Below are positions 1 to 17,894 of a stretch of 64,000 bases of DNA, in pieces. The position numbers were made by a program, and so were the translations under genes. Numbering within the stretch: the first letter of the stretch is position 1; each line of letters opens with the position of its first letter. The notes under the pieces were generated by a model, which ran no database searches, was not told the DNA's origin, and was given only the letters and a program-made list of their open reading frames with translations. This DNA is from Limisphaerales bacterium (GTDB lineage Bacteria; Verrucomicrobiota; Verrucomicrobiia; Limisphaerales; SXTU01), in assembly GCA_009773355.1 (NCBI GenBank), contig WRPG01000003.1, positions 105,628-169,627 of the forward strand. Direction: 5' to 3'.

Positions 1-2406
1 AGTGAGCAGGTTGACAAATATCTCACTGGATCGTTGGTCCAGCAAGCTATCCGGCTCGACTGTTGGTAGGAAATCCTGCGGAGGTTCTTGTCCCTGTTCT
101 GATTGTTCCTTCGAGGGGTTCCGTAACTCGTCATAGATCAAGTGAAACGCCTCGTGCAGAAAGTCCAGATAGGAGGGAACATGATGCACATGCGGCACAT
201 CCGTGACGATCATTGCCAAGCGCGCGGAACCGGGCAGTTCGTCCTCTGGTTTCGCCTCCCGTTGGGCATCGGTCAGGTCCTTATTCTCAGGAGTGAGCTG
301 GAGTTTGATTGCCCAAATACCCGGTTGAAAACTGACTCGCATCACTACCCCAACTCGATCTCGATGATCGCGGGAGTTTTTAAGGACGTTGTTCCTCAAA
401 ACGCCAACGGCACACTTCAACACGGCATCGGCAGCAAAGAGCATCTGATTTAATCCACCGCGGAAATCAATGTCCATGTCCCGGTGCAACTCCTCGGGAT
501 AAGCACGGTAAAGCCGATGCTCCAGAGAGCGGTGCAACGTGCTCACGAAGTTGGCGAGCTCGCCCACCTTGGTGAAATGCAACCGTAAACGGTGCTCCTG
601 ACCCTCACCCGGTTTCGGGGGCAGCTCTTTGGTGAGCATCCGATGCAACGTTGCAAAGGCGTCGTAAAGGTCGAGAACTGTGTCGAAGACGAACGGGTTT
701 GCAAGCAATGTTGCGTAATTTTGGTAGAGGAATTCCAACGCATGAATCAAGGAAACTGGCAAAACATAACTGTTAGGTTTCGTGCGTATTTCGTGGAGAG
801 AAAGGCCGCCAGAGAAGGCAGGGTTGAGTCTTTTACCTTGCGGCAAACACTGTTTCATCCGCTCTTGATCAGACAAATCATCTGGGGCTATGCGCCACCT
901 AAGCACTGGCAGGAGCGCCTCCAAAACGCTGACGTGGCTCGCTTCCACACGAGGACAGAGAAAGTCTCCTCCATCCTTCAGTATCTTTGGGATTGGCACG
1001 CCAGCAACCGATGACAATCCAACCATATCTCTTCTGCCATGGTTCTTTTCAGTCAACTCGATGAATTTCTTCATGCAGCGTCCCACTTGACGGAAGAAGA
1101 GGCGTGTTGGGACGAGCATCTCCTGCCCATCGAAGGCGAATCCTTTGTGTTGTAACAGCAAATCTCCCTGCCCCATGGCATGCAAGTGAAACTCCCCCGA
1201 AAGCGGTGGGTGCGGTGGCACACCGAAAGACTCCTCTGCAATGCGCCTTTCCTTTTCAAGTTCCTGTTCGACAATTCGTAAAGCTTCCTCCACTTCGACC
1301 TGGTGCCCGGTTGCGGCTTGGATGACGCTGGTGGCACTGACATACCCCCGAATTGTCTGGTTTGGCTTTTCACTGTCTCTTGCGCACTTAAATGCCTCCT
1401 GCGTGACTCCGACCGTGCTGCGCGACCAACGGAATATATGGCTCGATCTCAAATCGGCCGCCTTCAACTGCAACTTCGAATCCCTGGCTACTGTTTTGGA
1501 AAACACTGGGCTCTCATCAGATCTGGTAACGTCATTTGCGAAAGCTTTGATTTGGCCGAACCATGCACTCTGGTCTAGAAGCCGCTCGAGCTTTTCGCTG
1601 CAGTCCGCATCAAACACTTTCCCGACAGTCAGGGCATGAATCCGGGCGAGTGCTGCCATAGGCACAGAGTAATTGGTCGTCACGCACCAGATCGCCAGTT
1701 CCTCTTGCCCCTGCATATCGAGGATGCAGAACTTGGTGGCACTCAGATCCTCCGCTGAGATTTCGAATGATTCCAGTCTTCCGTCCCGTGTTCTCTTGTC
1801 GAACTCCGCCATGGTGCTGCTGATTGCTGAGATGCTCGCACGCAACAGCGCCGCACCGAACAACAGCCCATGACCTAGCGAACCCCACCCGTTCAGCTTC
1901 AATCGGCTGAACATGACGAGAGGTGGCTTCTCGTCACTATGGCAGAGTCTCACCATCTCGTGTGGCTCCTTAAAGCAATCAAAGAAGTGACCTTCTTTCT
2001 TTGGCAATCCCTCCAACAACGTCTTGATTTTTGGACAAAGGCCTACACCGATTTCCTCGATTGTCGTGGAGCAGCGGGCGGTGATCTCGTGCAGCGGTTC
2101 GAAATCATCTAATAGGACGAATGAAAATGCATCCGCGTGGCCGACCGGCAGAAAATGCACTGGCTCGTAAATACCAGCTAATAGATCAGACTCTGAACCG
2201 GATTGTTTTCCTAGATGCTTTGAGACGTTTGCGGTGATTTCGTCAAACTCTTTGAACACCCGTGCAAATGGATCAGGATCAACGCCGCTTGAATGGGCGC
2301 AGCAGGATTGACGCCTCGTCCACTCCGCGTCCATTCCTGCTGCCAAGAGCAGGTAGGGATGGTAATGCAACAGTGGAGACAGTTCATTCGCGTCATTGAG
2401 TTTCAT
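1..2406 (-). CDS. Large uncharacterized protein, N-terminal 802 codons (3' end lies beyond window start); contains HExxH (HEAFH) motif
   Basis: Hand translation of the reverse strand from ATG 2406 (AGGAGG at 2415-2420, 8-nt spacer, in-frame TAG at 2419-2421) gives 802 sense codons with no stop down to nt 1. The ORF is absent from the supplied track because it runs off the edge. No family recognised and no Walker A seen. HEAFH is encoded at nt 142-156. G+C is about 50% by hand count. Confidence 0.7.
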   Translation of the reverse strand, partial: MKLNDANELSPLLHYHPYLLLAAGMDAEWTRRQSCCAHSSGVDPDPFARVFKEFDEITANVSKHLGKQSGSESDLLAGIYEPVHFLPVGHADAFSFVLLDDFEPLHEITARCSTTIEEIGVGLCPKIKTLLEGLPKKEGHFFDCFKEPHEMVRLCHSDEKPPLVMFSRLKLNGWGSLGHGLLFGAALLRASISAISSTMAEFDKRTRDGRLESFEISAEDLSATKFCILDMQGQEELAIWCVTTNYSVPMAALARIHALTVGKVFDADCSEKLERLLDQSAWFGQIKAFANDVTRSDESPVFSKTVARDSKLQLKAADLRSSHIFRWSRSTVGVTQEAFKCARDSEKPNQTIRGYVSATSVIQAATGHQVEVEEALRIVEQELEKERRIAEESFGVPPHPPLSGEFHLHAMGQGDLLLQHKGFAFDGQEMLVPTRLFFRQVGRCMKKFIELTEKNHGRRDMVGLSSVAGVPIPKILKDGGDFLCPRVEASHVSVLEALLPVLRWRIAPDDLSDQERMKQCLPQGKRLNPAFSGGLSLHEIRTKPNSYVLPVSLIHALEFLYQNYATLLANPFVFDTVLDLYDAFATLHRMLTKELPPKPGEGQEHRLRLHFTKVGELANFVSTLHRSLEHRLYRAYPEELHRDMDIDFRGGLNQMLFAADAVLKCAVGVLRNNVLKNSRDHRDRVGVVMRVSFQPGIWAIKLQLTPENKDLTDAQREAKPEDELPGSARLAMIVTDVPHVHHVPSYLDFLHEAFHLIYDELRNPSKEQSEQGQEPPQDFLPTVEPDSLLDQRSSEIFVNLLT

Positions 2407-2444
2407 CTGCACACCCTCCTATTGCCCCGTTAGGGGTGGTTAGC

Positions 2445-3167
2445 TCACCGCTTTAACCGAGCGATCTTGCCGGTGCCAATCTTTCCGTTACGCACCAACT
2501 GATCTATCCAGAACCGCGCTCGACGCGATTCCCCAAGCAACTGGTCCACATTATTCTTGCCCCACAGCGCGGCCATGCTCATGGCTGGATCAGGCACATA
2601 ATCCCGTTGCAGCCTCAACTCCGACTGTTCTTGAAACAGGGGATAGGGAACGTAGATGCGTGTCTTGGACACCTTACGCTCAGCCACCAATGCCTCAAGC
2701 CGCTTTGTTATCTCCTCGCCTATTTGTTCCGGTGCTGCCAGCCATGGGCGCAACCGTTCAGGAAAATAGGCCGAATAGCCAATCATCTGCTTCCGGTGCG
2801 GCTCCATCATGTCCATCATTGCGGCCGTCTCGGCAGACTCGTCGTCGTTGATCAGAGGGGGTAAATCTTGTGTGGAGATTGCGGCCCAAGCCAGCGAGTA
2901 GCGCAGGAGCAGCCGTTCAGCCAATCCTTCGAATGCCATGCCGTCATCGTCTTGAGGAAAAAATCCTCCAACTACTTTGGGCATATCCTCCCTGAGTTCT
3001 GCCTCCAAGCGGGCCAAGTTCACGTTGCCCCTACGGCGAAGGAATTTCTGAAACTTGAGAAATGCCCCGCTCGGTCCCTTATTTTTCTCAGCCAATTCCA
3101 TGCTCGTTGACATTTTCTTAGCAGAGAGTGTGCCCGTGAGTAAGCAGCCCGCGACATTCGTGTTCAT
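2445..3167 (-). CDS. Hypothetical protein (240 aa from ATG 3167; ORF open to 3251)
   Basis: Track ORF 2445..3251. The internal ATG at 3167 overlaps the TGA of the upstream gene (ATGA at 3164-3167), suggesting translational coupling. It lies in the low-GC island. No recognisable family. Confidence 0.55.
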   Translation of the reverse strand: MNTNVAGCLLTGTLSAKKMSTSMELAEKNKGPSGAFLKFQKFLRRRGNVNLARLEAELREDMPKVVGGFFPQDDDGMAFEGLAERLLLRYSLAWAAISTQDLPPLINDDESAETAAMMDMMEPHRKQMIGYSAYFPERLRPWLAAPEQIGEEITKRLEALVAERKVSKTRIYVPYPLFQEQSELRLQRDYVPDPAMSMAALWGKNNVDQLLGESRRARFWIDQLVRNGKIGTGKIARLKR

Positions 3168-3511
3168 ACTAGCTCCCCCGTTGGTTCTGTTCCCTGCTGT
3201 GGTGGAAACTGACTCATGAGCCAGTCGATCTGATCTTTGGACCAGAGACACGAGTATGCCGGACTCCGGTGCTTGCGGCCTTTGAAGCCAAAAAGTCCCT
3301 GGAGAACTTTTTCAACATCCAACGGCGTAATGGACACTACGTTTGCTTGCTTCATGAATTTATGGAATCGGGCTGCAGGATTGTCTGCCTCAGCGAACTC
3401 GTTTTTGACTTGAGGCATGATCGCAGTGGTAACTCGACAGAACTGAGGCCAGCTTAAGTCCTCAACACATTTACGAAAATCCTCCCATTCTGAATTTTCG
3501 TCGTCATCCAT
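3164..3511 (-). CDS. Small hypothetical protein (115 aa) sharing an N-terminal SWxQFxR...V..EF.E...PA.R module with the adjacent TIR protein
   Basis: Track ORF. Residues 16-80 align by eye with residues 12-72 of the 3550..4380 protein. Same strand with a 38-nt gap to the upstream gene. Confidence 0.55.
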   Translation of the reverse strand: MDDDENSEWEDFRKCVEDLSWPQFCRVTTAIMPQVKNEFAEADNPAARFHKFMKQANVVSITPLDVEKVLQGLFGFKGRKHRSPAYSCLWSKDQIDWLMSQFPPQQGTEPTGELV

Positions 3512-3549
3512 ATCTTGTGTTTCTCTCGTCAGATCTTGTTTTTTGCAGG

Positions 3550-4380
3550 CTAATGGGAATTCTGCAATGCATCTGCAATTCTTTGCGCAGCAGCGAGTGG
3601 CTCTTTTTCGTCAGACAGCATGATTCGAGGCAATCCCTCAAGGGTTGGCGGCATTGCTGCTTTGGGATGGATGATTACGAGGACCAGCGGCCCTTCCCCC
3701 TTCCTTCCGTAGCGGTTGACGAGCGACCTGATCTCTAGCTGTTGCCATCGGCCAATCCCGCCTGCGCCCAAAAAAATCACTCCTCCCCTACAGTTTAGGA
3801 GCGCCGCGTCCAACTGCGCCTGGTCATTGCTTCCCAAGCCAATGTCGTGAACATCCATCCAGCCATAGACGCCAACCTCTTTGAGCAACTCTCGAAATAG
3901 CAGCACTGTGGCACGATCCTCCGCATTGTAGCTCAAGAATAGGTCGAACGGAGTATTTCGAGCCTTTGTTGCGACCGGATTGGCCTTGTCGCCAGCTGAC
4001 GAGTCCTTTGGGCAGCAATTTTTCCGGAACTCCCCCAACTGCGAGGTAAGCAGGCGATGACGGTCTTCCAACTTTGCTTCCAGTTGGTTCAACCGGTCCA
4101 GCACCGCGCCAATTTCAGAGTCGGCAACCATACCCCTGCTGGGACGATATGGCGCTGTGTGGCTAAGGAAAAGTGAATTCAAAGCATCCGAAACAGCCTG
4201 TTCATCTATGCAGGCAGCAATCAACAGATTTTCCAACGTCAACACGCGGACGGCTGGTGAAACAGATTCAGAGAACTCAGAACGCACCGCCTCTAGTCCA
4301 AGTCCGCGAAGCAAACGACTGAACTGAGACCATGACATGGCCTCAATCCTCGCGGCGGTATTTGGTGACAGCACCCTCAT
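3550..4380 (-). CDS. TIR-domain protein (N-terminal helical module, coiled-coil linker, C-terminal TIR)
   Basis: The C-terminal 125 aa read FDLFLSYNAEDRATVLLFRELLKEVGVYGWMDVHDIGLGSNDQAQLDAALLNCRGGVIFLG..GIGRWQQLEIRSL. This matches the TIR pattern: a DxFxSY beta-A strand, D..L.G, a hydrophobic beta strand, and W..xE with a candidate catalytic Glu216 at nt 3733-3735. Heptad-like region AVLDRLNQLEAKLEDRHRLL at residues 92-111. Confidence 0.78.
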   Translation of the reverse strand: MRVLSPNTAARIEAMSWSQFSRLLRGLGLEAVRSEFSESVSPAVRVLTLENLLIAACIDEQAVSDALNSLFLSHTAPYRPSRGMVADSEIGAVLDRLNQLEAKLEDRHRLLTSQLGEFRKNCCPKDSSAGDKANPVATKARNTPFDLFLSYNAEDRATVLLFRELLKEVGVYGWMDVHDIGLGSNDQAQLDAALLNCRGGVIFLGAGGIGRWQQLEIRSLVNRYGRKGEGPLVLVIIHPKAAMPPTLEGLPRIMLSDEKEPLAAAQRIADALQNSH

Positions 4381-4437
4381 TCAACCAGTCGGGCGCATCG
4401 TCGCGGATCTTCAATCATCACGTCAAGCAATGGAATA

Positions 4438-5193
4438 TTAGCCGGGTGGGAGATTGTTCGGCGGCGGGGCAGTGCCGCCTCCGCCATTTTCGCCACCTTC
4501 CGCTTCTTCCCCACCATCAGAGCTGCCGCCGCCGATGCGGCGGGCGTTGAAGTAGCCGTCCACGAATAGGTCTTTCTCCTCGGTGCCGGTGATCTGGATG
4601 ATGAGGTCGTCCATGCCTTCCAGCAGCACGTCCACGGCGCGGAAGCGCGGGCGGAGGTCGGCGGTCTTGGCCTTGCGCGTGGAGCGGGCGCTGGCGGGTG
4701 CACCAATCACGTTCTCGTAGGCAGCGATCTTGGTGTTCAACGCGGTGGTGGCGGCGGCGATAATTCCATAAGGCTCGCCGGCGGGCGGGGTGCCGGTGGT
4801 GTGCGGGAGGAGCGCGGTGTGCAGGGCCTTGGCGCGGTTGAGCAGGGCGGTCTCCTGCATCTTGCGCCAGTCGCTCAGAGAGAGATCCCACGGCGCGGCA
4901 GCTTCCAGATTGTTCTGTGCGATGAACAGCAGGCGCAGCGCGCGGCCGAGCGGATGCGCGGCGTCCTCCAGCGCCTTCTCCGCCGCGTTCTGCTGGTCGG
5001 TCACGCCAGTGATCAAGGCGGACTGCGAGTCCCCGAACGCGCCAAGGTTGCCAGCGGCGGTCTCGAACTGGCCTTCGAGCGTGGTGAAGATGGTGGGTGC
5101 GAGGTTGAACCAGAGAGCCTTGTTCGTCGTGACCTGGAGGTAGGTCTTCACGGCAGAAAACATGTCCAGTTTGGCGATGAGTTCGTCTTTCAT
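4438..5193 (-). CDS. Hypothetical protein with Gly/Glu-rich C-terminal tail
   Basis: Track ORF of 251 aa with AAGGA upstream of ATG 5193. Host-like high G+C. Ends 57 nt upstream of the TIR gene on the same strand. No family recognised. Confidence 0.6.
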   Translation of the reverse strand: MKDELIAKLDMFSAVKTYLQVTTNKALWFNLAPTIFTTLEGQFETAAGNLGAFGDSQSALITGVTDQQNAAEKALEDAAHPLGRALRLLFIAQNNLEAAAPWDLSLSDWRKMQETALLNRAKALHTALLPHTTGTPPAGEPYGIIAAATTALNTKIAAYENVIGAPASARSTRKAKTADLRPRFRAVDVLLEGMDDLIIQITGTEEKDLFVDGYFNARRIGGGSSDGGEEAEGGENGGGGTAPPPNNLPPG

Positions 5194-5491: not shown

Positions 5492-5806
5492 CAATGCTAG
5501 GATTGACCCGACCATGAGTGCGATTTATCCGACCAGAAATCGGATTGATGCTCCCGGACCAATTCTCGACCCGACCAGGCCCCGGATTGACCCGACCGAC
5601 ACGATTCCTGACACGACCGGAGTGATCCTCAATGCGACCGGAACGACGATTGATCCGACGCGGCCAGGGATTGGTCCGACCGGGGCGATTCTTCATTCGC
5701 CCGGCGCAATAACGGAACCGACTTGGCCGATGACCGACGCGACTTGGACAAGAATTCATCCGACCGAGTCCGCGATGGATGCGACCGGGATAATTACCGT
5801 CCCGAC
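5492..5806. repeat. Fifteen strictly phased, degenerate 21-nt tandem repeats (core ATTGAyCCGACC)
   Basis: Read directly. Units end in CCGACC or a close variant every 21 nt with no indels. The plus frame reads xxxIDPT heptads and the minus frame GRVNPxx heptads. G+C is about 52%. Confidence 0.8.
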
Positions 5807-11731: not shown

Positions 11732-11952
11732 AAATTGTTTTCGTTCAACACCACAAACCCGTGCGACAAGTCGCCGGGCGTCAATTTCACCGTCACCATC
11801 GCGCCCATTTTCACCCGCTCCACCAGCGGAGCCTGCCGGCGCGCCACATGGCCCAGCAGCCGGTGGCCGTTCGCGAGTTCCACCCGCAACAGCCCGTTCG
11901 CCAGCGCTTCCACTACCGCGCCCTCAACGACGAAGGCAGATTCTCCGGGCAC
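11728..11952 (-). CDS. infA: Translation initiation factor IF-1 (start uncertain; GTG 11952 proposed)
   Basis: [29 protein letters not shown]...[17 protein letters not shown] matches the IF-1 S1-like fold pattern. The track ORF extends to 12039 but that part overlaps map. GTG 11952 gives 74 aa. Confidence 0.8.
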
Positions 11953-12692
11953 GTCAAAATTTCCGGCTCGGACTCGGTGATGAGCACCGTGTGCTCCATG
12001 TGCGCCGACGGCAACCCGTCCTGCGTCACCACTGTCCATTTGTCACTCAACACTTTCACCACGGCCGAACCCGCGTTCACCATCGGCTCGATGGCAATCG
12101 TCATGCCCGGCTTCAACTTCGCCGAGTTCTTGCCCGGTTCCACGAAGTTTGGCACCTGCGGATCCTCGTGGACCGTGCGCCCGACGCCGTGACCGACAAA
12201 TTCACGCACCACGCTGAAGCCGTTCGACTCAACGTAGGTCTGCACCGCCCGCGAGATGTCCACGACACGGTTCCCGGCCAACGCGCGGGAAATTCCTTCA
12301 TACAAGGCCTGCGTCGTCACATCAATCAGTTTTTGCGCCAGCAGGTTGCATCCGCCCACCGCGACGGTCTTCGCCGTGTCGCCGATGTAGCCCTGATACC
12401 GCACGCCCACATCCAGGCTGATGATGTCGCCAAACTGGATGCGGCGCGGCCCGGCCAGTCCGTGCACCACCTCGTCGTTCACCGAGATGCAGATGTTGCA
12501 CGGATACTTCCGGTAGCCGAGAAACGCGCTGGTCGCGCCGTAGTGCCGGATGCGGGACGCCGCGAAGTCATCCACTTCCTTCGTCGTCACGCCGGGCCGG
12601 ATGAACGCGCCCACGTCATTCAGCACCACCGCGGCGATCGCCCCGGCGGCCCGCATGATGTCGAGTTCGCGTTCTGTCTTTAAGACAATCAT
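11913..12692 (-). CDS. map: Methionine aminopeptidase type I
   Basis: 259 aa with conserved MAP motifs (HGIP-like [34 protein letters not shown]). Confidence 0.93.
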
Positions 12693-12813
12693 TGCCGCAA
12701 CACAGCCGAGGTCAGCACCAGTTCATCCAGCACCCACTTCCCACGTTCAAGGAACATTTCGCCAAGCGGCCAACCGCCGGGCGCTAGCCGCTTCCCACCG
12801 GAAAGCGCTCAAA

Positions 12814-14217
12814 TCAAAACCGCCCGCGCAGACGCGGCCCCTTGCCGCCCTTGCCACCGCTGAGAAAACCGTCGTAGTGCCGCATCAGGAGGTGCGACTC
12901 CATCATCCGCATCGTGTCCAGCACCACGCCGACGGTGATGAGCAGGCTCGTGCCGCCGAAAAACTGCGAGACGTAGTAGTTGATGCCGAACTTCCGCGTC
13001 ATGAACGTCGGGATGATGGCGATGACGCACAGGAAGATTGCCCCCGCCAGCGTGATGCGGCTCATCGTGTGATGCAGGAAATCGCTCGTGGCCTGGCCCG
13101 GACGCACGCCAGGGATGTAGCCGCCATACTTCTTCAGGTCGTCGGCGATTTGCACCTCATTGAACTGCGTCGCCACCCAGAAGTAAGAGAAGAACAGAAT
13201 CATCGCCGCCAGCGCCGCCATGTGGGTCCACTGATCCTCCCGGAAATTCAGCGACAACTTCACCAGCAAGTCACCCGTCGGCCCCCCCAACGACTGCCCC
13301 GCCATCCCCAGCAGCTTCTCGGGGAACATCAGTATCGCCTGCGCAAAAATGATCGGCATCACCCCCGCGTAATTCACCTTCAGCGGCATGAACGAGCTGC
13401 CGCCCTGCACCATCTTCCGACCCACCGTCCGTTGCGCATACTGCACCGGAATCTTCCGCTGCGCCTGCGTCACCGCGATCACCCCCGCGATCACCGCCAG
13501 CAGCAGCAGCACCAGCGCGACGCCGTGGAACAAATTGAACTTGGCCTGGATGCCCTCCGGCGTCACAAACATCTCCCACAGCGCCTGCACCGTCTGCGGC
13601 ACGCGGGCCAAGATGCCAATGGTGATGACCAGCGACACGCCGTTGCCGATGCCGCGCTCGCTGATTTGCTCGCCGAGCCACATCATCAGCAGCGTCCCCG
13701 TGGTGAGCAGCAAGGTGGTTTGCAGCCGGTAAGCCAGGCCGGGGTCCGCCACGAGCTGCCCGTTGAACCCCTGGAAAATCTTCTCCGGGTTCTCCCAGGC
13801 AATCGCCATCACGAAGCCCTGCCCGAGGCAAAGAATGACCGTGAGGTAGCGACCGTATTGGATGATTTTCGCGCGACCGCCCTCCTCCCGCGCCAGCTTG
13901 CTCAACTGCGGGATGACCGCGCTGAGGAGCTGGATGATGATGGTGGCGCTGATGTAGGGCATGATGCCCAGCGACCCGATGCCGCACCGCTCCAGCGCAC
14001 CGCCGGTGAACATCGAATACATCCCCAGCAGGCCGCCGCCGTCCTTTTTGGCAATCTCATCGAAGAACGCCTGCAACGCCGCGCCATCCAACCCCGGCAG
14101 CGGGAGCATCGAGACGAGGCGGCAGATGGCGAGGACGATGAGGGTGAAGAAAATCCGCGACTTCAGCTCCGGAATCTTGAAGCAGTTGACGAACGTGTTG
14201 ACGATGTTCTTGAACAT
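12814..14217 (-). CDS. secY: Preprotein translocase subunit SecY
   Basis: 467 aa polytopic membrane protein with canonical SecY sequence. Located between rplO and map. Confidence 0.95.
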   Translation of the reverse strand: MFKNIVNTFVNCFKIPELKSRIFFTLIVLAICRLVSMLPLPGLDGAALQAFFDEIAKKDGGGLLGMYSMFTGGALERCGIGSLGIMPYISATIIIQLLSAVIPQLSKLAREEGGRAKIIQYGRYLTVILCLGQGFVMAIAWENPEKIFQGFNGQLVADPGLAYRLQTTLLLTTGTLLMMWLGEQISERGIGNGVSLVITIGILARVPQTVQALWEMFVTPEGIQAKFNLFHGVALVLLLLAVIAGVIAVTQAQRKIPVQYAQRTVGRKMVQGGSSFMPLKVNYAGVMPIIFAQAILMFPEKLLGMAGQSLGGPTGDLLVKLSLNFREDQWTHMAALAAMILFFSYFWVATQFNEVQIADDLKKYGGYIPGVRPGQATSDFLHHTMSRITLAGAIFLCVIAIIPTFMTRKFGINYYVSQFFGGTSLLITVGVVLDTMRMMESHLLMRHYDGFLSGGKGGKGPRLRGRF

Positions 14218-14237
14218 GGAGCGAAGTCAGCCGCCGC

Positions 14238-14699
14238 CTAGGCTGCCTTGGGAGCCGGAGCCTCGCACGCGCCGCCGAGCGCCTCAATCTGTTTGCGGGC
14301 ACCCGCGCTGAACGCGTCCGCCACCACGGTCAGCTTCTTGGTGAGCTTGCCGTCGCCGAGAATCTTGATGCCGCCGCTGGACTTGCCGTTGGCCAGGCCG
14401 GTCTGGCGGAGCGCCGCCTCGTCCACCCGCGCGCCGTCATCGAAGGCGTTCAAACCCTCGACGTTGACGGGGATGTAGGTGGTGGCAAAGCGGGCGTTGC
14501 TGAAACCGCGCTTGGGCAGGCGGCGGAAGAGCGGCATCTGGCCGCCCTCGAACGTGGGGCGGATGGAGGAACCGCTGCGCGCGGACTGGCCCTTGCCGCC
14601 GCGGCCGGAGGTCTTGCCGTGGCCGCTGGACTCGCCCTGGCCGAGGCGCTTTTTCCGGTGCTTCGCGCCGGGACGGGGCTTCAGATCGTGGAGACGCAT
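14238..14699 (-). CDS. rplO: 50S ribosomal protein L15
   Basis: [38 protein letters not shown]... is canonical L15. Confidence 0.95.
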
Positions 14700-14722
14700 G
14701 GTGACGAAAGGTTAAGAGTGAA

Positions 14723-15403
14723 TCAGGCTGCGACGGGGGCGGCGGAAGCGCCGGCTTCCTTGCGCGCGCCACCGAGGCTGACGCCGCGGCGCTTGGCCAC
14801 GTCCTCGCGGAGGCGGAGGCTTTGCAGCGCCGCGATGGTCGCCTTGGCGACGTTCGCCGCGTTCTTGGAGCCGAGCGACTTGCTCAACACGTCCTTGATG
14901 CCGACGGTTTCGAGCACCGCGCGGACGGTCTTGCCGGCGATGAGGCCGGTGCCCGGCGAGGCGGGGCGCAGGAGCACCTTCGCGCCGTCGAAGGCGCAGT
15001 AGGCGTCGTGCGGAATCGTCGCGCCGGTGATGGACACGGAAAGCATGTTCTGCTTGGAGGCCTCGCCACCCTTTTTGATGGCCTCGGAAACCTCGGCGGC
15101 CTTGCCGAGGCCGATGCCGATCTTGCCCTTGCGGTCGCCGGTGACGACGAGCGCGCTGAAGCTGAAGCGGCGTCCGCCCTTCACGACCTTCGCGGAGCGG
15201 TTGATGAAGAGCACCTTCTCGCAGAACTCGCTGTTCGCGTTCTGCTCGGCTTCGGGACGGCGGCGCGGACCACCGCGACCGGGGCCACGGCCACGGCCAC
15301 CGCGGTCGCCACCACGCTGCTCGCTGCGTTCGGCGGGGGCGGCTGCGGCGACGGGCGCCGGCTCGGCGGCGACGGCGGGAGGATTCGTAATTGGTTCAGA
15401 CAC
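14723..15403 (-). CDS. rpsE: 30S ribosomal protein S5 with about 60-aa Ala/Pro/Arg/Gly-rich N-terminal extension and C-terminal tail
   Basis: Core is EKVLFINRSAKVVKGGRRFSFSALVVTGD... The extension is low complexity. Confidence 0.93.
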   Translation of the reverse strand: MSEPITNPPAVAAEPAPVAAAAPAERSEQRGGDRGGRGRGPGRGGPRRRPEAEQNANSEFCEKVLFINRSAKVVKGGRRFSFSALVVTGDRKGKIGIGLGKAAEVSEAIKKGGEASKQNMLSVSITGATIPHDAYCAFDGAKVLLRPASPGTGLIAGKTVRAVLETVGIKDVLSKSLGSKNAANVAKATIAALQSLRLREDVAKRRGVSLGGARKEAGASAAPVAA

Positions 15404-17606: not shown

Positions 17607-17894
17607 TCAGGCTTTGGCTGGCTCGGCGGCGGGCGTGCCGCGCTTGGCGGCGCGGGCGTCGAACTTGGCGGCGAGCATCACGTTCGAGACGTGGATGGGG
17701 CCTTCGCGTTCGAGGATCGCGCCGTTGGGGTTCTGCTGGTTCTTGCGGACGTGCTTCTTCTGGATGTTCACGCCCTCGACAAAGACGCGCTCGGTCTTGG
17801 TCACCACGGAGATGATCTTGCCGCGCTTGCCTTTGTCCTTGCCGGTGATGACGACCACTTCGTCCTCACGTTTCACATGAAGTTTGCTGGGCAT
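17607..17894 (-). CDS. rplX: 50S ribosomal protein L24
   Basis: KLHVKREDEVVVITGKDKGKRGKI... shows the KOW motif of L24. Confidence 0.95.
   Translation of the reverse strand: MPSKLHVKREDEVVVITGKDKGKRGKIISVVTKTERVFVEGVNIQKKHVRKNQQNPNGAILEREGPIHVSNVMLAAKFDARAAKRGTPAAEPAKA

Follow-up and report, generated by a model that had tools for sequence, protein, structure and literature searches.

Introduction

The closest described precedent for the locus considered here is offered by systems built around effector-associated domains (EADs). In the account given in PMC7159879, an EAD is a small, non-enzymatic, and mostly helical domain that is found on an effector and again in the adjacent gene. The same account describes the copies in neighboring genes as closest relatives of each other and proposes a homotypic coupling of the effector to the core of the system; in the systems covered there, a core component (VMAP, iSTAND, Ubl, or GAP1) carries one of the copies, and the core has an NTPase. 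Systems of this type are also reported for planctomycetes and verrucomicrobia (PMC7159879 and PMC8195603; Kaur, Burroughs, Iyer, and Aravind, eLife 2020, 2021). Here, we analyzed a stretch of 64,000 nucleotides from a Limisphaerales bacterium (GenBank contig WRPG01000003.1, forward-strand positions 105,628 to 169,627), which is referred to below as the window. At its very beginning, between positions 1 and 4380, lies a minus-strand operon of four genes, the first of which encodes a TIR domain protein. We hold, with somewhat better than even confidence and on the basis of sequence analysis, that these four genes make up a single cassette of a modular conflict system of an undescribed kind, most likely of the anti-phage abortive-infection type. 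This defense role, like the trigger and the binding partners proposed below, is what we infer from the architecture of the locus.

Other described systems share individual features with this operon. In type IV Thoeris, a protease of the caspase-like type is described as being switched on by a TIR signal (Rousset et al. 2025, cited from PMC13069673). Pycsar and Pucsar systems combine a PycC-type cyclic nucleotide monophosphate (cNMP) cyclase with an effector that either carries a cNMP-binding domain (CNBD) and a TIR domain or is a transmembrane (3TM) protein (bioRxiv 10.64898/2026.08.12.744502). HExxH proteases of the IrrE/ImmA type, such as CapP of CBASS, are presented in bioRxiv 10.1101/2022.04.27.489752 as trigger-sensing regulators of an immune operon.

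Organization and conservation of the four-gene operon

A preliminary description of the window had reported four tightly packed minus-strand genes, and this arrangement was borne out by open reading frame (ORF) calls and translation. Gene 1 (3550..4380) encodes an adaptor-TIR protein of 276 aa when counted from the first ATG. Gene 2 (3164..3511) encodes a 115-aa protein that consists of a stand-alone copy of the adaptor and a C-terminal Cys-x-Trp segment, whereas gene 3 (2445..3167, with its ATG at 3167) encodes a partner protein of 240 aa. The remaining ORF (1..2406) corresponds to the first 802 of the 1,116 codons of a conserved core protein, gene 4, the remainder of which lies past window position 1. 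The reported spacing was found to be exact: 38 nt separate genes 1 and 2, an ATGA stop/start overlap joins genes 2 and 3, and a further 38 nt, with TAGGAGGG ahead of gene 4, separate genes 3 and 4. To judge by the ATGA overlap, gene 3 is translationally coupled to gene 2.

The full-length sequence of gene 4 was obtained from contig L001 (ENA ERZ27284375, 106 kb; L numbers are used below for loci and contigs). It shares 14,338 bases with the window, all of them identical, and extends 6.4 kb past window position 1. On this contig, gene 4 spans positions 11933-15283 and encodes 1,116 aa. Gene 1 probably starts at Met15 (nt 4338), giving a product of 262 aa, because a GAGGA is located 8 nt upstream, the gene call in databases is for 262 aa, and a 58%-identical homologue starts at this position. 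Records of the 262-aa product exist for several contigs, and an exact-match look-up of the 276-aa product retrieved none.

The operon differs in composition from its surroundings. Determined in 500-nt steps, the G+C content is about 0.50-0.55 over positions 1-4500 and 0.61-0.71 beyond, and the G+C content at third codon positions (GC3) is 0.51-0.63 in genes 1-4 versus 0.81-0.91 in five neighboring genes. The claim of a foreign composition was thus upheld. The low-GC island had been described as comprising four genes, however, and this part did not hold: on L001, the block extends over ~7 kb and contains six genes, including those for a cyclase and a ThsB-type TIR protein. No Walker A motif was found by motif search in any of the six island proteins, which agrees with what had been said of the four operon products.

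Close relatives of the operon proteins are few. Word-based searches of 5.8 billion proteins yielded a single one for gene 1 (58% identity), whereas genes 4 and 3 had three each, at 56, 51, and 40% and at 50, 41, and 27% identity, respectively. The gene 3 homologues were always found directly upstream of gene 4 or in the same cassette. The order TIR protein, small protein, protein of ~230-256 aa, and protein of ~1,100-1,250 aa was observed in L001, in L006, on a 31-kb JGI contig, and in L017/L007. The four genes are thus syntenic in four sequence-divergent versions of the cassette, in which gene 4 is 40-56% identical to that of the window, and in three genomic contexts. On the JGI contig the cassette is accompanied by exosortase and carbamoyltransferase genes, and in L017/L007 by cytochrome c/TPR and astacin genes. 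Because the same order recurs in L006, the JGI contig, and L017/L007, the four genes are considered a conserved cassette. In a fifth locus, L019, from a metagenome-assembled genome (MAG) at NCBI, a gene 3 homologue is immediately preceded by a gene for a Fic-domain protein; the contig breaks off at this point and does not reach a gene 4.

The TIR protein and the adaptor shared by genes 1 and 2

The four proteins were compared with Pfam, NCBIfam (June 2026), and PADLOC-DB v2. None of these libraries contains a family matching the products of genes 2, 3, or 4, which are hence not placed in a named system, and gene 1 gave generic TIR matches only. That the first gene encodes a TIR domain, as proposed from the sequence letters, is supported by a Pfam TIR_2 match of residues 148-264 (E 7e-12; 46.3 bits versus a cut-off of 28) and by sequence matches to AbTIR. 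The domain comprises residues ~143-264 (3589..3954, minus strand) and aligns to AbTIR residues 2-87 and 42-137. Entries of the AbTIR NADase of Acinetobacter were the best sequence matches of gene 1 in the PDB (E 5e-6). Both the D-x-F-x-S strand and the Glu of the W-x3-E motif align with the AbTIR-type NADases (PDB 7uwg, 7uxu, and 8g83), although the identity is low, the match covers only ~85-95 residues, and gene 1 has in addition an N-terminal adaptor and a long linker. The linker was judged by eye to contain a coiled coil.

The candidate catalytic residue is Glu216 of W212-x3-E216. Its codon was confirmed at 3733..3735 (minus strand), the position given in the preliminary description, and the residue aligns with the Glu in the AbTIR segment WTNYELDGLV, which is the catalytic residue of that enzyme. 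Glu216 is conserved in three homologues; P0002 and the TIR protein of L006 both keep it, the latter without the Trp. NADase competence of gene 1 is therefore plausible as far as can be judged from the sequence. All other profile matches are confined to the TIR part, namely, the PADLOC families PDC-S66 (E 2.2e-10; gene 1 residues 107-226 against model positions 121-232 of 282), SAVED_TIR (limited to residues 139-238), and ThsB, as well as the NCBIfam model Retron_TIR, which scored 19 bits versus a cut-off of 600.

The N-terminal part of gene 1 contains a helical adaptor domain (residues ~12-72; 4165..4347, minus strand) that is paralogous to gene 2, with a BLASTP E value of 1e-6 between the two. 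The same homology between the N terminus of the TIR protein and the adjacent gene 2 product was detected in all three TIR loci, the corresponding values being 3e-7 in L006 and 4e-8 in L017. In addition, the TIR protein of L004, the 58%-identical homologue, matches the gene 2 protein of the window (phmmer, 1.4e-11). Between the L017 pair and that of the window, no similarity was detectable, so that the two adaptor copies co-vary as a pair between loci. The gene 2 proteins of the window, L006, and L007 have the C-terminal Cys-x-Trp segment in common. Neither gene 2 nor the N terminus of gene 1 matched a Pfam family at E<=1, the Pfam EAD families included; a relation to the described EAD1-11 or bDLD families may lie below the sensitivity of HMMER. 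The N terminus of the Trypsin_2 protein encoded at locus L009 weakly resembles the window adaptor domain. In view of the paralogy of gene 2 to the N terminus of gene 1, and of the zincin-type motif of gene 4 described below, the preliminary description had understated the content of the set in calling it an operon of unknowns.

The gene 4 protein family

Gene 4 represents a real and moderately widespread family. A profile search of 1.84 billion cluster representatives retrieved 344 clusters at a threshold of E<=1e-3, of which 225 remained at E<=1e-30, and the members are mostly full-length proteins of ~1,050-1,150 aa. Apart from its absence from the three family libraries, gene 4 had no sequence or profile match in the PDB, and such searches likewise retrieved nothing for gene 3.

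Within the window, gene 4 contains the sequence HEAFH at residues 751-755 (142..156, minus strand; regex match), a zincin-type HExxH motif, and alignment identified Glu795 (22..24, minus strand), 43 residues after HExxH, as a candidate third metal ligand. Glu795 is invariant in four close homologues. A family alignment was made of 151 members, 141 of which cover the HExxH site and 139 the downstream Glu. In this alignment, where HEAFH and Glu795 of the window protein correspond to H718-H722 and E765, H718 and H722 are each conserved in 140 of 141 members and E719 in 138 of 141, while E765 is conserved in 134 of 139, with an Asp in the other five; each of these four residues is kept in >=96% of the members covered. 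Further near-invariant polar residues are located in the N-terminal half (GHAD, DD, D-x-Q, H308, GH346, and G-x-x-D384), and R603 and R1054 are also near-invariant.

Structural models were generated with AlphaFold2 (AF2). The model of P0003, the L006 homologue of gene 4 (56% identical), was based on a 50-sequence alignment and had a mean predicted local distance difference test score (pLDDT) of 87.5 and a predicted template modeling score (pTM) of 0.93. Residues ~15-445 are predicted to form repeated b-a-b-b-a-b units, and residues ~508-1086 are mostly helical. The latter part contains a three-stranded sheet (657-703) followed by a helix with the HExxH motif (710-729), and the Glu is located on the next long helix (758-776). 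In the model, this C-terminal topology is the arrangement of a gluzincin core. The C-terminal domain of gene 4 is consequently a candidate zinc protease, an assignment that rests on the invariance of the motif and on the local topology.

The N-terminal alpha+beta region of the window protein (residues ~15-475; 982..2364, minus strand) is made of repeated ferredoxin-like units. A separate AF2 model of its residues 1-500 had a pLDDT of 87.8 and a pTM of 0.91, and a Foldseek search with this model returned chlorite dismutase, coproheme decarboxylase, and DyP with E values of 7e-4 to 1e-2 and probabilities of ~1.0. These matches to CDE-fold proteins are characterized by target-normalized TM scores of 0.45-0.57, root-mean-square deviations of 5-9 A, and 7-12% identity. 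The N-terminal half is thus predicted to have a chlorite-dismutase-like double ferredoxin fold, in which two ferredoxin-like units build an alpha+beta barrel. The b-a-b-b-a-b units, together with acidic hairpin motifs (GHAD, QGQEE, and GQGD), had also suggested a palm or cyclase domain of the GGDEF or Cas10 type. This idea was not supported, because Foldseek gave CDE-fold proteins, and an adenylyl cyclase was found only at E 0.25 with a probability of 0.13.

Exchange of the upstream enzyme across the family

Pattern scans of GTDB species genomes revealed nine gene 4 loci, all of them in lineages of the Planctomycetes-Verrucomicrobia-Chlamydiae (PVC) superphylum, namely, Verrucomicrobiaceae (two copies in one MAG), Tepidisphaeraceae, Sedimentisphaerales, Gemmataceae/Gemmatales, and Phycisphaerae. 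With 15 further loci on metagenome contigs, the total exceeds 20, and every named host is a planctomycete or a verrucomicrobial bacterium. Carriage of gene 4 by phages or plasmids was considered and dismissed, as no homologues were found in IMG/VR, GenBank phages, or PLSDB plasmids.

In the ORFs obtained by crude calling, a tightly coupled ORF of 140-330 aa with the same orientation nearly always lies ahead of gene 4, and a larger, variable gene lies in front of this ORF. According to Pfam, this upstream gene encodes TIR_2 in the window clade, Trypsin_2 in L009, Metallophos in L011, Fic in L019, HD-CE in L020, KAP_NTPase in L024/L025 and L026, CHAT plus a DUF900 hydrolase in L028, and TCAD9 ("ternary complex associated domain 9") in L033. 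Cyclase-like proteins (FFDVHGYS, GDG) are encoded directly upstream of gene 4 in L031 (463-1599 and 1723-3069) and L029 (323-1681), and in L031 the "effector" slot is occupied by a cyclase-like protein fused to a CAP12/PycTIR-type TIR domain (PF10137, 2.4e-37). A large protein that stays constant while toxic or signaling enzymes are exchanged beside it is the hallmark of modular conflict systems in which sensing or regulation falls to the constant component and execution to the variable one.

The identity of the exchanged enzymes bears on a Thoeris-like alternative, according to which the TIR protein would make an NAD-derived messenger that is bound by the ferredoxin-like module of gene 4 and switches on the HExxH protease. 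TIR-to-protease signaling has a precedent in type IV Thoeris as summarized in PMC13069673, the upstream slot of L029 and L031 holds cyclase-like proteins, which are also signal generators, and gene 4 has, in the models, a plausible ligand-binding fold plus a catalytic motif. However, most of the other loci possess Trypsin_2, CHAT, Fic, HD-CE, Metallophos, or KAP NTPase proteins, which are of the effector or NTPase type and not messenger synthases, and it is normally the effector that varies in modular immune systems. Moreover, the co-varying adaptor pair points to recruitment between proteins rather than to a diffusible signal, and no SLOG, Macro, SAVED, CARF, or CNBD sensor was detectable with Pfam. 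We consider it unlikely that the cassette works in this manner.

Several of the distant loci have features of their own. L008 and L009 are two contigs of one Verrucomicrobiaceae MAG (JAIXYN01), which carries paralogous gene 4 loci with different upstream genes. The proteins encoded upstream of gene 4 in two Gemmataceae loci (624 aa at L013 6829-8700 and 508 aa at L014 7132-8655) had no Pfam match; a Glu-Lys-Cys pattern (FPE...K...ICxD), seen by eye, is reminiscent of carbon-nitrogen hydrolases. A phage-type integrase is encoded just downstream of gene 4 in L013. Genes of the uroporphyrinogen decarboxylase (URO-D) family, at L019 953-1924 and L020 559-1836, adjoin two unrelated cassettes, that of L019 with its Fic-gene 3 arrangement and the gene 4 locus L020, a proximity that is curious given the heme-enzyme-like fold of the gene 4 N terminus but may be a coincidence.

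Divergence between close relatives and the neighboring cyclase-ThsB pair

L001 and L006 correspond to the same chromosomal site in close relatives, since they share 88% of the residues of a flanking PSCyt protein and ~90% of the bases of the intergenic DNA on the right-hand side. At the protein level, identity between the two loci is 87% for ThsB, 71% for the cyclase, 56% for gene 4, 50% for gene 3, and 31% for the TIR protein (gene 1), whereas the gene 2 products are barely alignable. In the same comparison, the identity at the nucleotide level is 0.85-0.95 in the flanks and falls to 0.39-0.50 across the TIR gene and gene 2. A divergence at the level of random sequence beside flanks of 88-95% identity cannot be the outcome of simple vertical descent, and the contrast indicates either a replacement of the cassette or a very strong diversification at a fixed hotspot. 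Replacement or diversification at hotspots is typical of immune loci.

The two genes that complete the low-GC island are convergent with the operon. They lie about 23-25 nt beyond the gene 4 stop codon and were located by ORF calling and profile searches at L001 15307-16977, ~930-2,640 bases beyond window position 1, on the window plus strand. The cyclase has 395 aa and contains an N-terminal class III nucleotide cyclase domain with the sequence FTDIVGFS (Pfam Guanylate_cyc, 2.8e-5), followed by a C-terminal domain of ~200 aa to which profile searches assigned no family; it had no PADLOC cyclase match. The ThsB-type TIR protein has 153 aa (PF08937, 3.8e-18) and is devoid of a cNMP-binding domain. 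The preliminary description had seen no cyclase partner, which holds for the four operon products but not for the island, given that a class III cyclase is encoded just beyond gene 4. The pair fits no canonical Pycsar, Pucsar, or Thoeris system and may be a second, separate system.

Alternatively, the functional unit might be the entire six-gene island, with the cyclase and the ThsB-type TIR protein acting together with the operon, for example by cNMP signaling into gene 4. The six genes have the same order in L001 and L006, the low-GC block spans all of them, the stop codon of gene 4 and that of the cyclase gene are only about 23 nt apart, and proteins with cyclase domains are encoded directly upstream of the distant gene 4 homologues in L029 and L031. 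However, the pair accompanies the cassette only in L001 and L006, which are not independent evidence because they represent the same chromosomal site in close relatives, and the cassettes of the JGI contig and of L007/L017 have no downstream cyclase or ThsB gene. The pair has also diverged far less than the operon (ThsB 87% and cyclase 71% versus 31-56%), and the island cyclase has no detectable similarity to the cyclase-like proteins of L029 and L031. A six-gene unit appears decidedly unlikely to us.

A proposed mechanism and its rivals

If the four genes indeed constitute a cassette of a modular conflict system, gene 4 would be its conserved hub. The N-terminal ferredoxin-like module would be the candidate sensing or ligand-binding part, and the C-terminal helical domain with its gluzincin-type HExxH...E site the candidate zinc protease. 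Gene 1 would be the exchangeable effector, whose TIR domain is predicted to degrade NAD+ by means of Glu216 and which would be tethered to the system by its N-terminal helical adaptor, with the stand-alone protein encoded by gene 2 as the cognate copy. The effector would be bridged to the hub by gene 2 and probably also by gene 3. Upon a trigger, the hub may release or assemble the TIR protein, either by proteolysis of the adaptor or linker or by induced oligomerization, and NAD+ depletion would follow.

A more far-reaching and tentative idea, to which we give clearly less credence than to the cassette itself, is that the gene 4 family is a new class of NTPase-independent immune hub of PVC bacteria, a sensor-zinc protease of ~1,100 residues to which exchangeable death effectors (TIR, CHAT, trypsin, Fic, HD, and others) are recruited by stand-alone adaptor pairs that evolve together. 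If this were true, the family would be a bacterial analogue of death-fold signalosomes that operates without a STAND, AAA+, or GTPase switch, and the domain combination of gene 4 would be one that has not been seen in any solved structure.

A number of observations weigh against the cassette and mechanism proposed here. Concerning gene 4, no hit reached E<=1e-3 when the whole chain was compared with PDB and BFVD by Foldseek, and no match to the fold of a known peptidase was obtained, the best peptidase being an M1 aminopeptidase at E 2.6; a Pfam peptidase match was not obtained either. Concerning the adaptor, its relation to the protein of the trypsin locus L009 is marginal (phmmer 0.002-0.03, and none by BLASTP). 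The proteins in the gene 3 position of the distant loci were not detectably homologous to gene 3 by phmmer or jackhmmer and share with it only an AA[LI]WG motif (hhalign E 0.07 over 24 residues), and the ORFs of these distant loci stem from crude longest-ORF calling. As for the genomic context, AbiE, dGTPase, PDC-M11, and nitrilase/DRT-like genes as well as integrases are present in some gene 4 neighborhoods, but many of the neighbors are housekeeping genes and not defense islands, so that an enrichment in defense islands is only suggestive. Finally, the window cassette departs from the EAD systems in that no vWA, MoxR, STAND, or GAP1 protein, nor an NTPase of another type or a Walker A motif, is found in it, and in that its second adaptor copy stands alone, with none fused to the core protein.

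The paralogy of genes 1 and 2 also accommodates a conflict role other than anti-phage defense, for example that of an addiction or toxin-antitoxin module or of a system for kin discrimination or programmed cell death, in which gene 2 would be a decoy or antitoxin that holds the TIR protein inactive. A stand-alone copy of an interaction domain could inhibit competitively. The named hosts are all PVC bacteria, and PMC7159879 argues for an apoptosis-like role of EAD systems in multicellular or aggregating bacteria, planctomycetes included. However, an enzyme of 1,116 aa with invariant motifs, together with gene 3, far exceeds what a toxin-antitoxin system needs, and hydropathy indicated no secretion signal, nor was a polymorphic-toxin context seen. 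The mechanism overlaps largely with that proposed above and differs in the trigger alone. We regard such a role as quite improbable. Least of all do we expect that gene 4 is a metabolic or regulatory enzyme, for instance a heme- or cofactor-binding CDE-fold protein, that lies beside a TIR gene by chance: the only significant fold match is to heme enzymes, URO-D genes of the heme pathway are found near L019 and L020, and many gene 4 neighbors are housekeeping genes, but the fold match is modest and the ferredoxin-like barrel a very common fold, the swapped upstream partners are typical of immune effectors, and the low G+C content, the hyper-divergence between close relatives, and the patchy distribution all favor a conflict system.

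Surroundings of the island

One flank of the island contains an rpoA-rplQ ribosomal cluster together with a beta-lactamase-like gene, an epoxide hydrolase gene, and a 251-aa ORF; the other, seen on L001, contains PSCyt1/PSCyt2/PSD1 and DUF1501 genes, families that are typical of planctomycetes. The 251-aa ORF (4438-5193, minus strand) has a host-like composition (GC3 0.83), a C-terminal tail rich in Gly, Glu, and Pro, and no family in Pfam, PADLOC, or NCBIfam. It was considered as a fifth gene of the operon and rejected: its GC3 is that of the host, and the 41 residues that can be aligned with the close relative L006 are 100% identical, whereas the cassette proteins are 31-56% identical, so that the ORF belongs to the conserved flank. 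The similarity to L006 ends within its C-terminal tail, which marks the left edge of the variable region.

No flanking direct repeats, integrase, or tRNA that would delimit a mobile element were found at the island ends. Rfam at gathering thresholds identified no RNA family anywhere in the window, and a scan for sigma-70 promoters and terminators was uninformative. A degenerate 21-nt periodic direct repeat with >=7 copies (GGTCGG.TCAATCC...GGTCGG) is located at window positions 5505-5786, in the 620 nt that separate the epoxide hydrolase gene from the 251-aa ORF, and is too degenerate for Tandem Repeats Finder. ARAGORN reported a 91-nt "tRNA-???" with a two-base anticodon at 17612-17702 (plus strand), which is probably a false positive.

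Comparison with known systems

The preliminary description had concluded that the set does not resemble Thoeris, CBASS, Pycsar, SPARTA, retron-TIR, or AVAST, and in each of these comparisons the defining partner was found to be absent. Searches of the six island proteins with Pfam, PADLOC, and NCBIfam revealed no SIR2, SLOG, or Macro domain of Thoeris I/II, and the window cassette has no caspase or CHAT domain as in type IV Thoeris, CHAT being present only in the distant L028. Profile searches gave no match to a CD-NTase (SMODS) of CBASS, and Pfam and PADLOC gave none to the Piwi, MID, or APAZ domains of SPARTA and short pAgo systems. A reverse transcriptase domain, as in retron-TIR, was not detected, and Rfam found nothing in the window; nor do the six island proteins contain a Walker A motif or match an NTPase family, as would be expected for Avs/AVAST and STAND proteins. 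The operon has no cyclase of the Pycsar/Pucsar type, and the neighboring cyclase is paired with a 153-aa TIR protein without CNBD. Literature searches did not retrieve a description of this architecture in open-access text.

With the IrrE/ImmA-type proteases, gene 4 shares the presence of a zinc-metalloprotease motif in a putative immune operon, for which these proteins are a precedent. There is, however, no sequence or profile similarity, gene 4 is ~10 times larger, and no helix-turn-helix repressor partner was identified. The likeness to Pycsar and Pucsar lies in the convergent cyclase beside a TIR gene in the island and in the L031 cyclase fused to a CAP12/PycTIR-type TIR domain. It concerns the neighboring pair and not the four-gene operon, and even the pair differs in that its ThsB-type TIR protein of 153 aa has no cNMP-binding domain and its cyclase carries a C-terminal domain of ~200 aa. 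Type IV Thoeris resembles the operon more closely, as both combine a TIR protein with a predicted protease in a compact operon and PADLOC detects a ThsB-type similarity. In contrast to type IV Thoeris, the candidate protease is of the HExxH metallo-type, is part of a multidomain protein of 1,116 aa, and is not a caspase; there are two extra small proteins, the TIR protein bears an adaptor, and the TIR slot is swapped for non-signaling enzymes.

The closest links are with the EAD systems. As in these, a small domain occurs twice in adjacent genes, once on an exchangeable effector, and the adjacent copies are the closest relatives. The effectors also overlap, comprising TIR, trypsin, caspase/CHAT, calcineurin-like phosphoesterase, and cyclase, and TCAD9 is found in one related locus. 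Beyond the departures mentioned above, the operon differs from EAD systems in its core protein, gene 4, which belongs to a different and undescribed family, and in an adaptor that falls outside the Pfam EAD families at E<=1.

Confirmation of the proposal would add a defense or conflict system built on a large core family that Pfam, NCBIfam, PADLOC, and PDB all lack. The logic of effector-associated adaptors would then extend to a system without an NTPase switch, which raises the question of how activation is gated. The natural effector swaps on one chassis may be helpful for learning how a hub licenses toxic enzymes, in a superphylum whose immune repertoire is poorly sampled by screens in model organisms. 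Set against the systems described so far, the TIR effector, the coupling by adaptors, and the modular cassette follow a known logic, whereas the core family, its domain combination, and the NTPase-free architecture have no counterpart in the libraries and the open literature searched.

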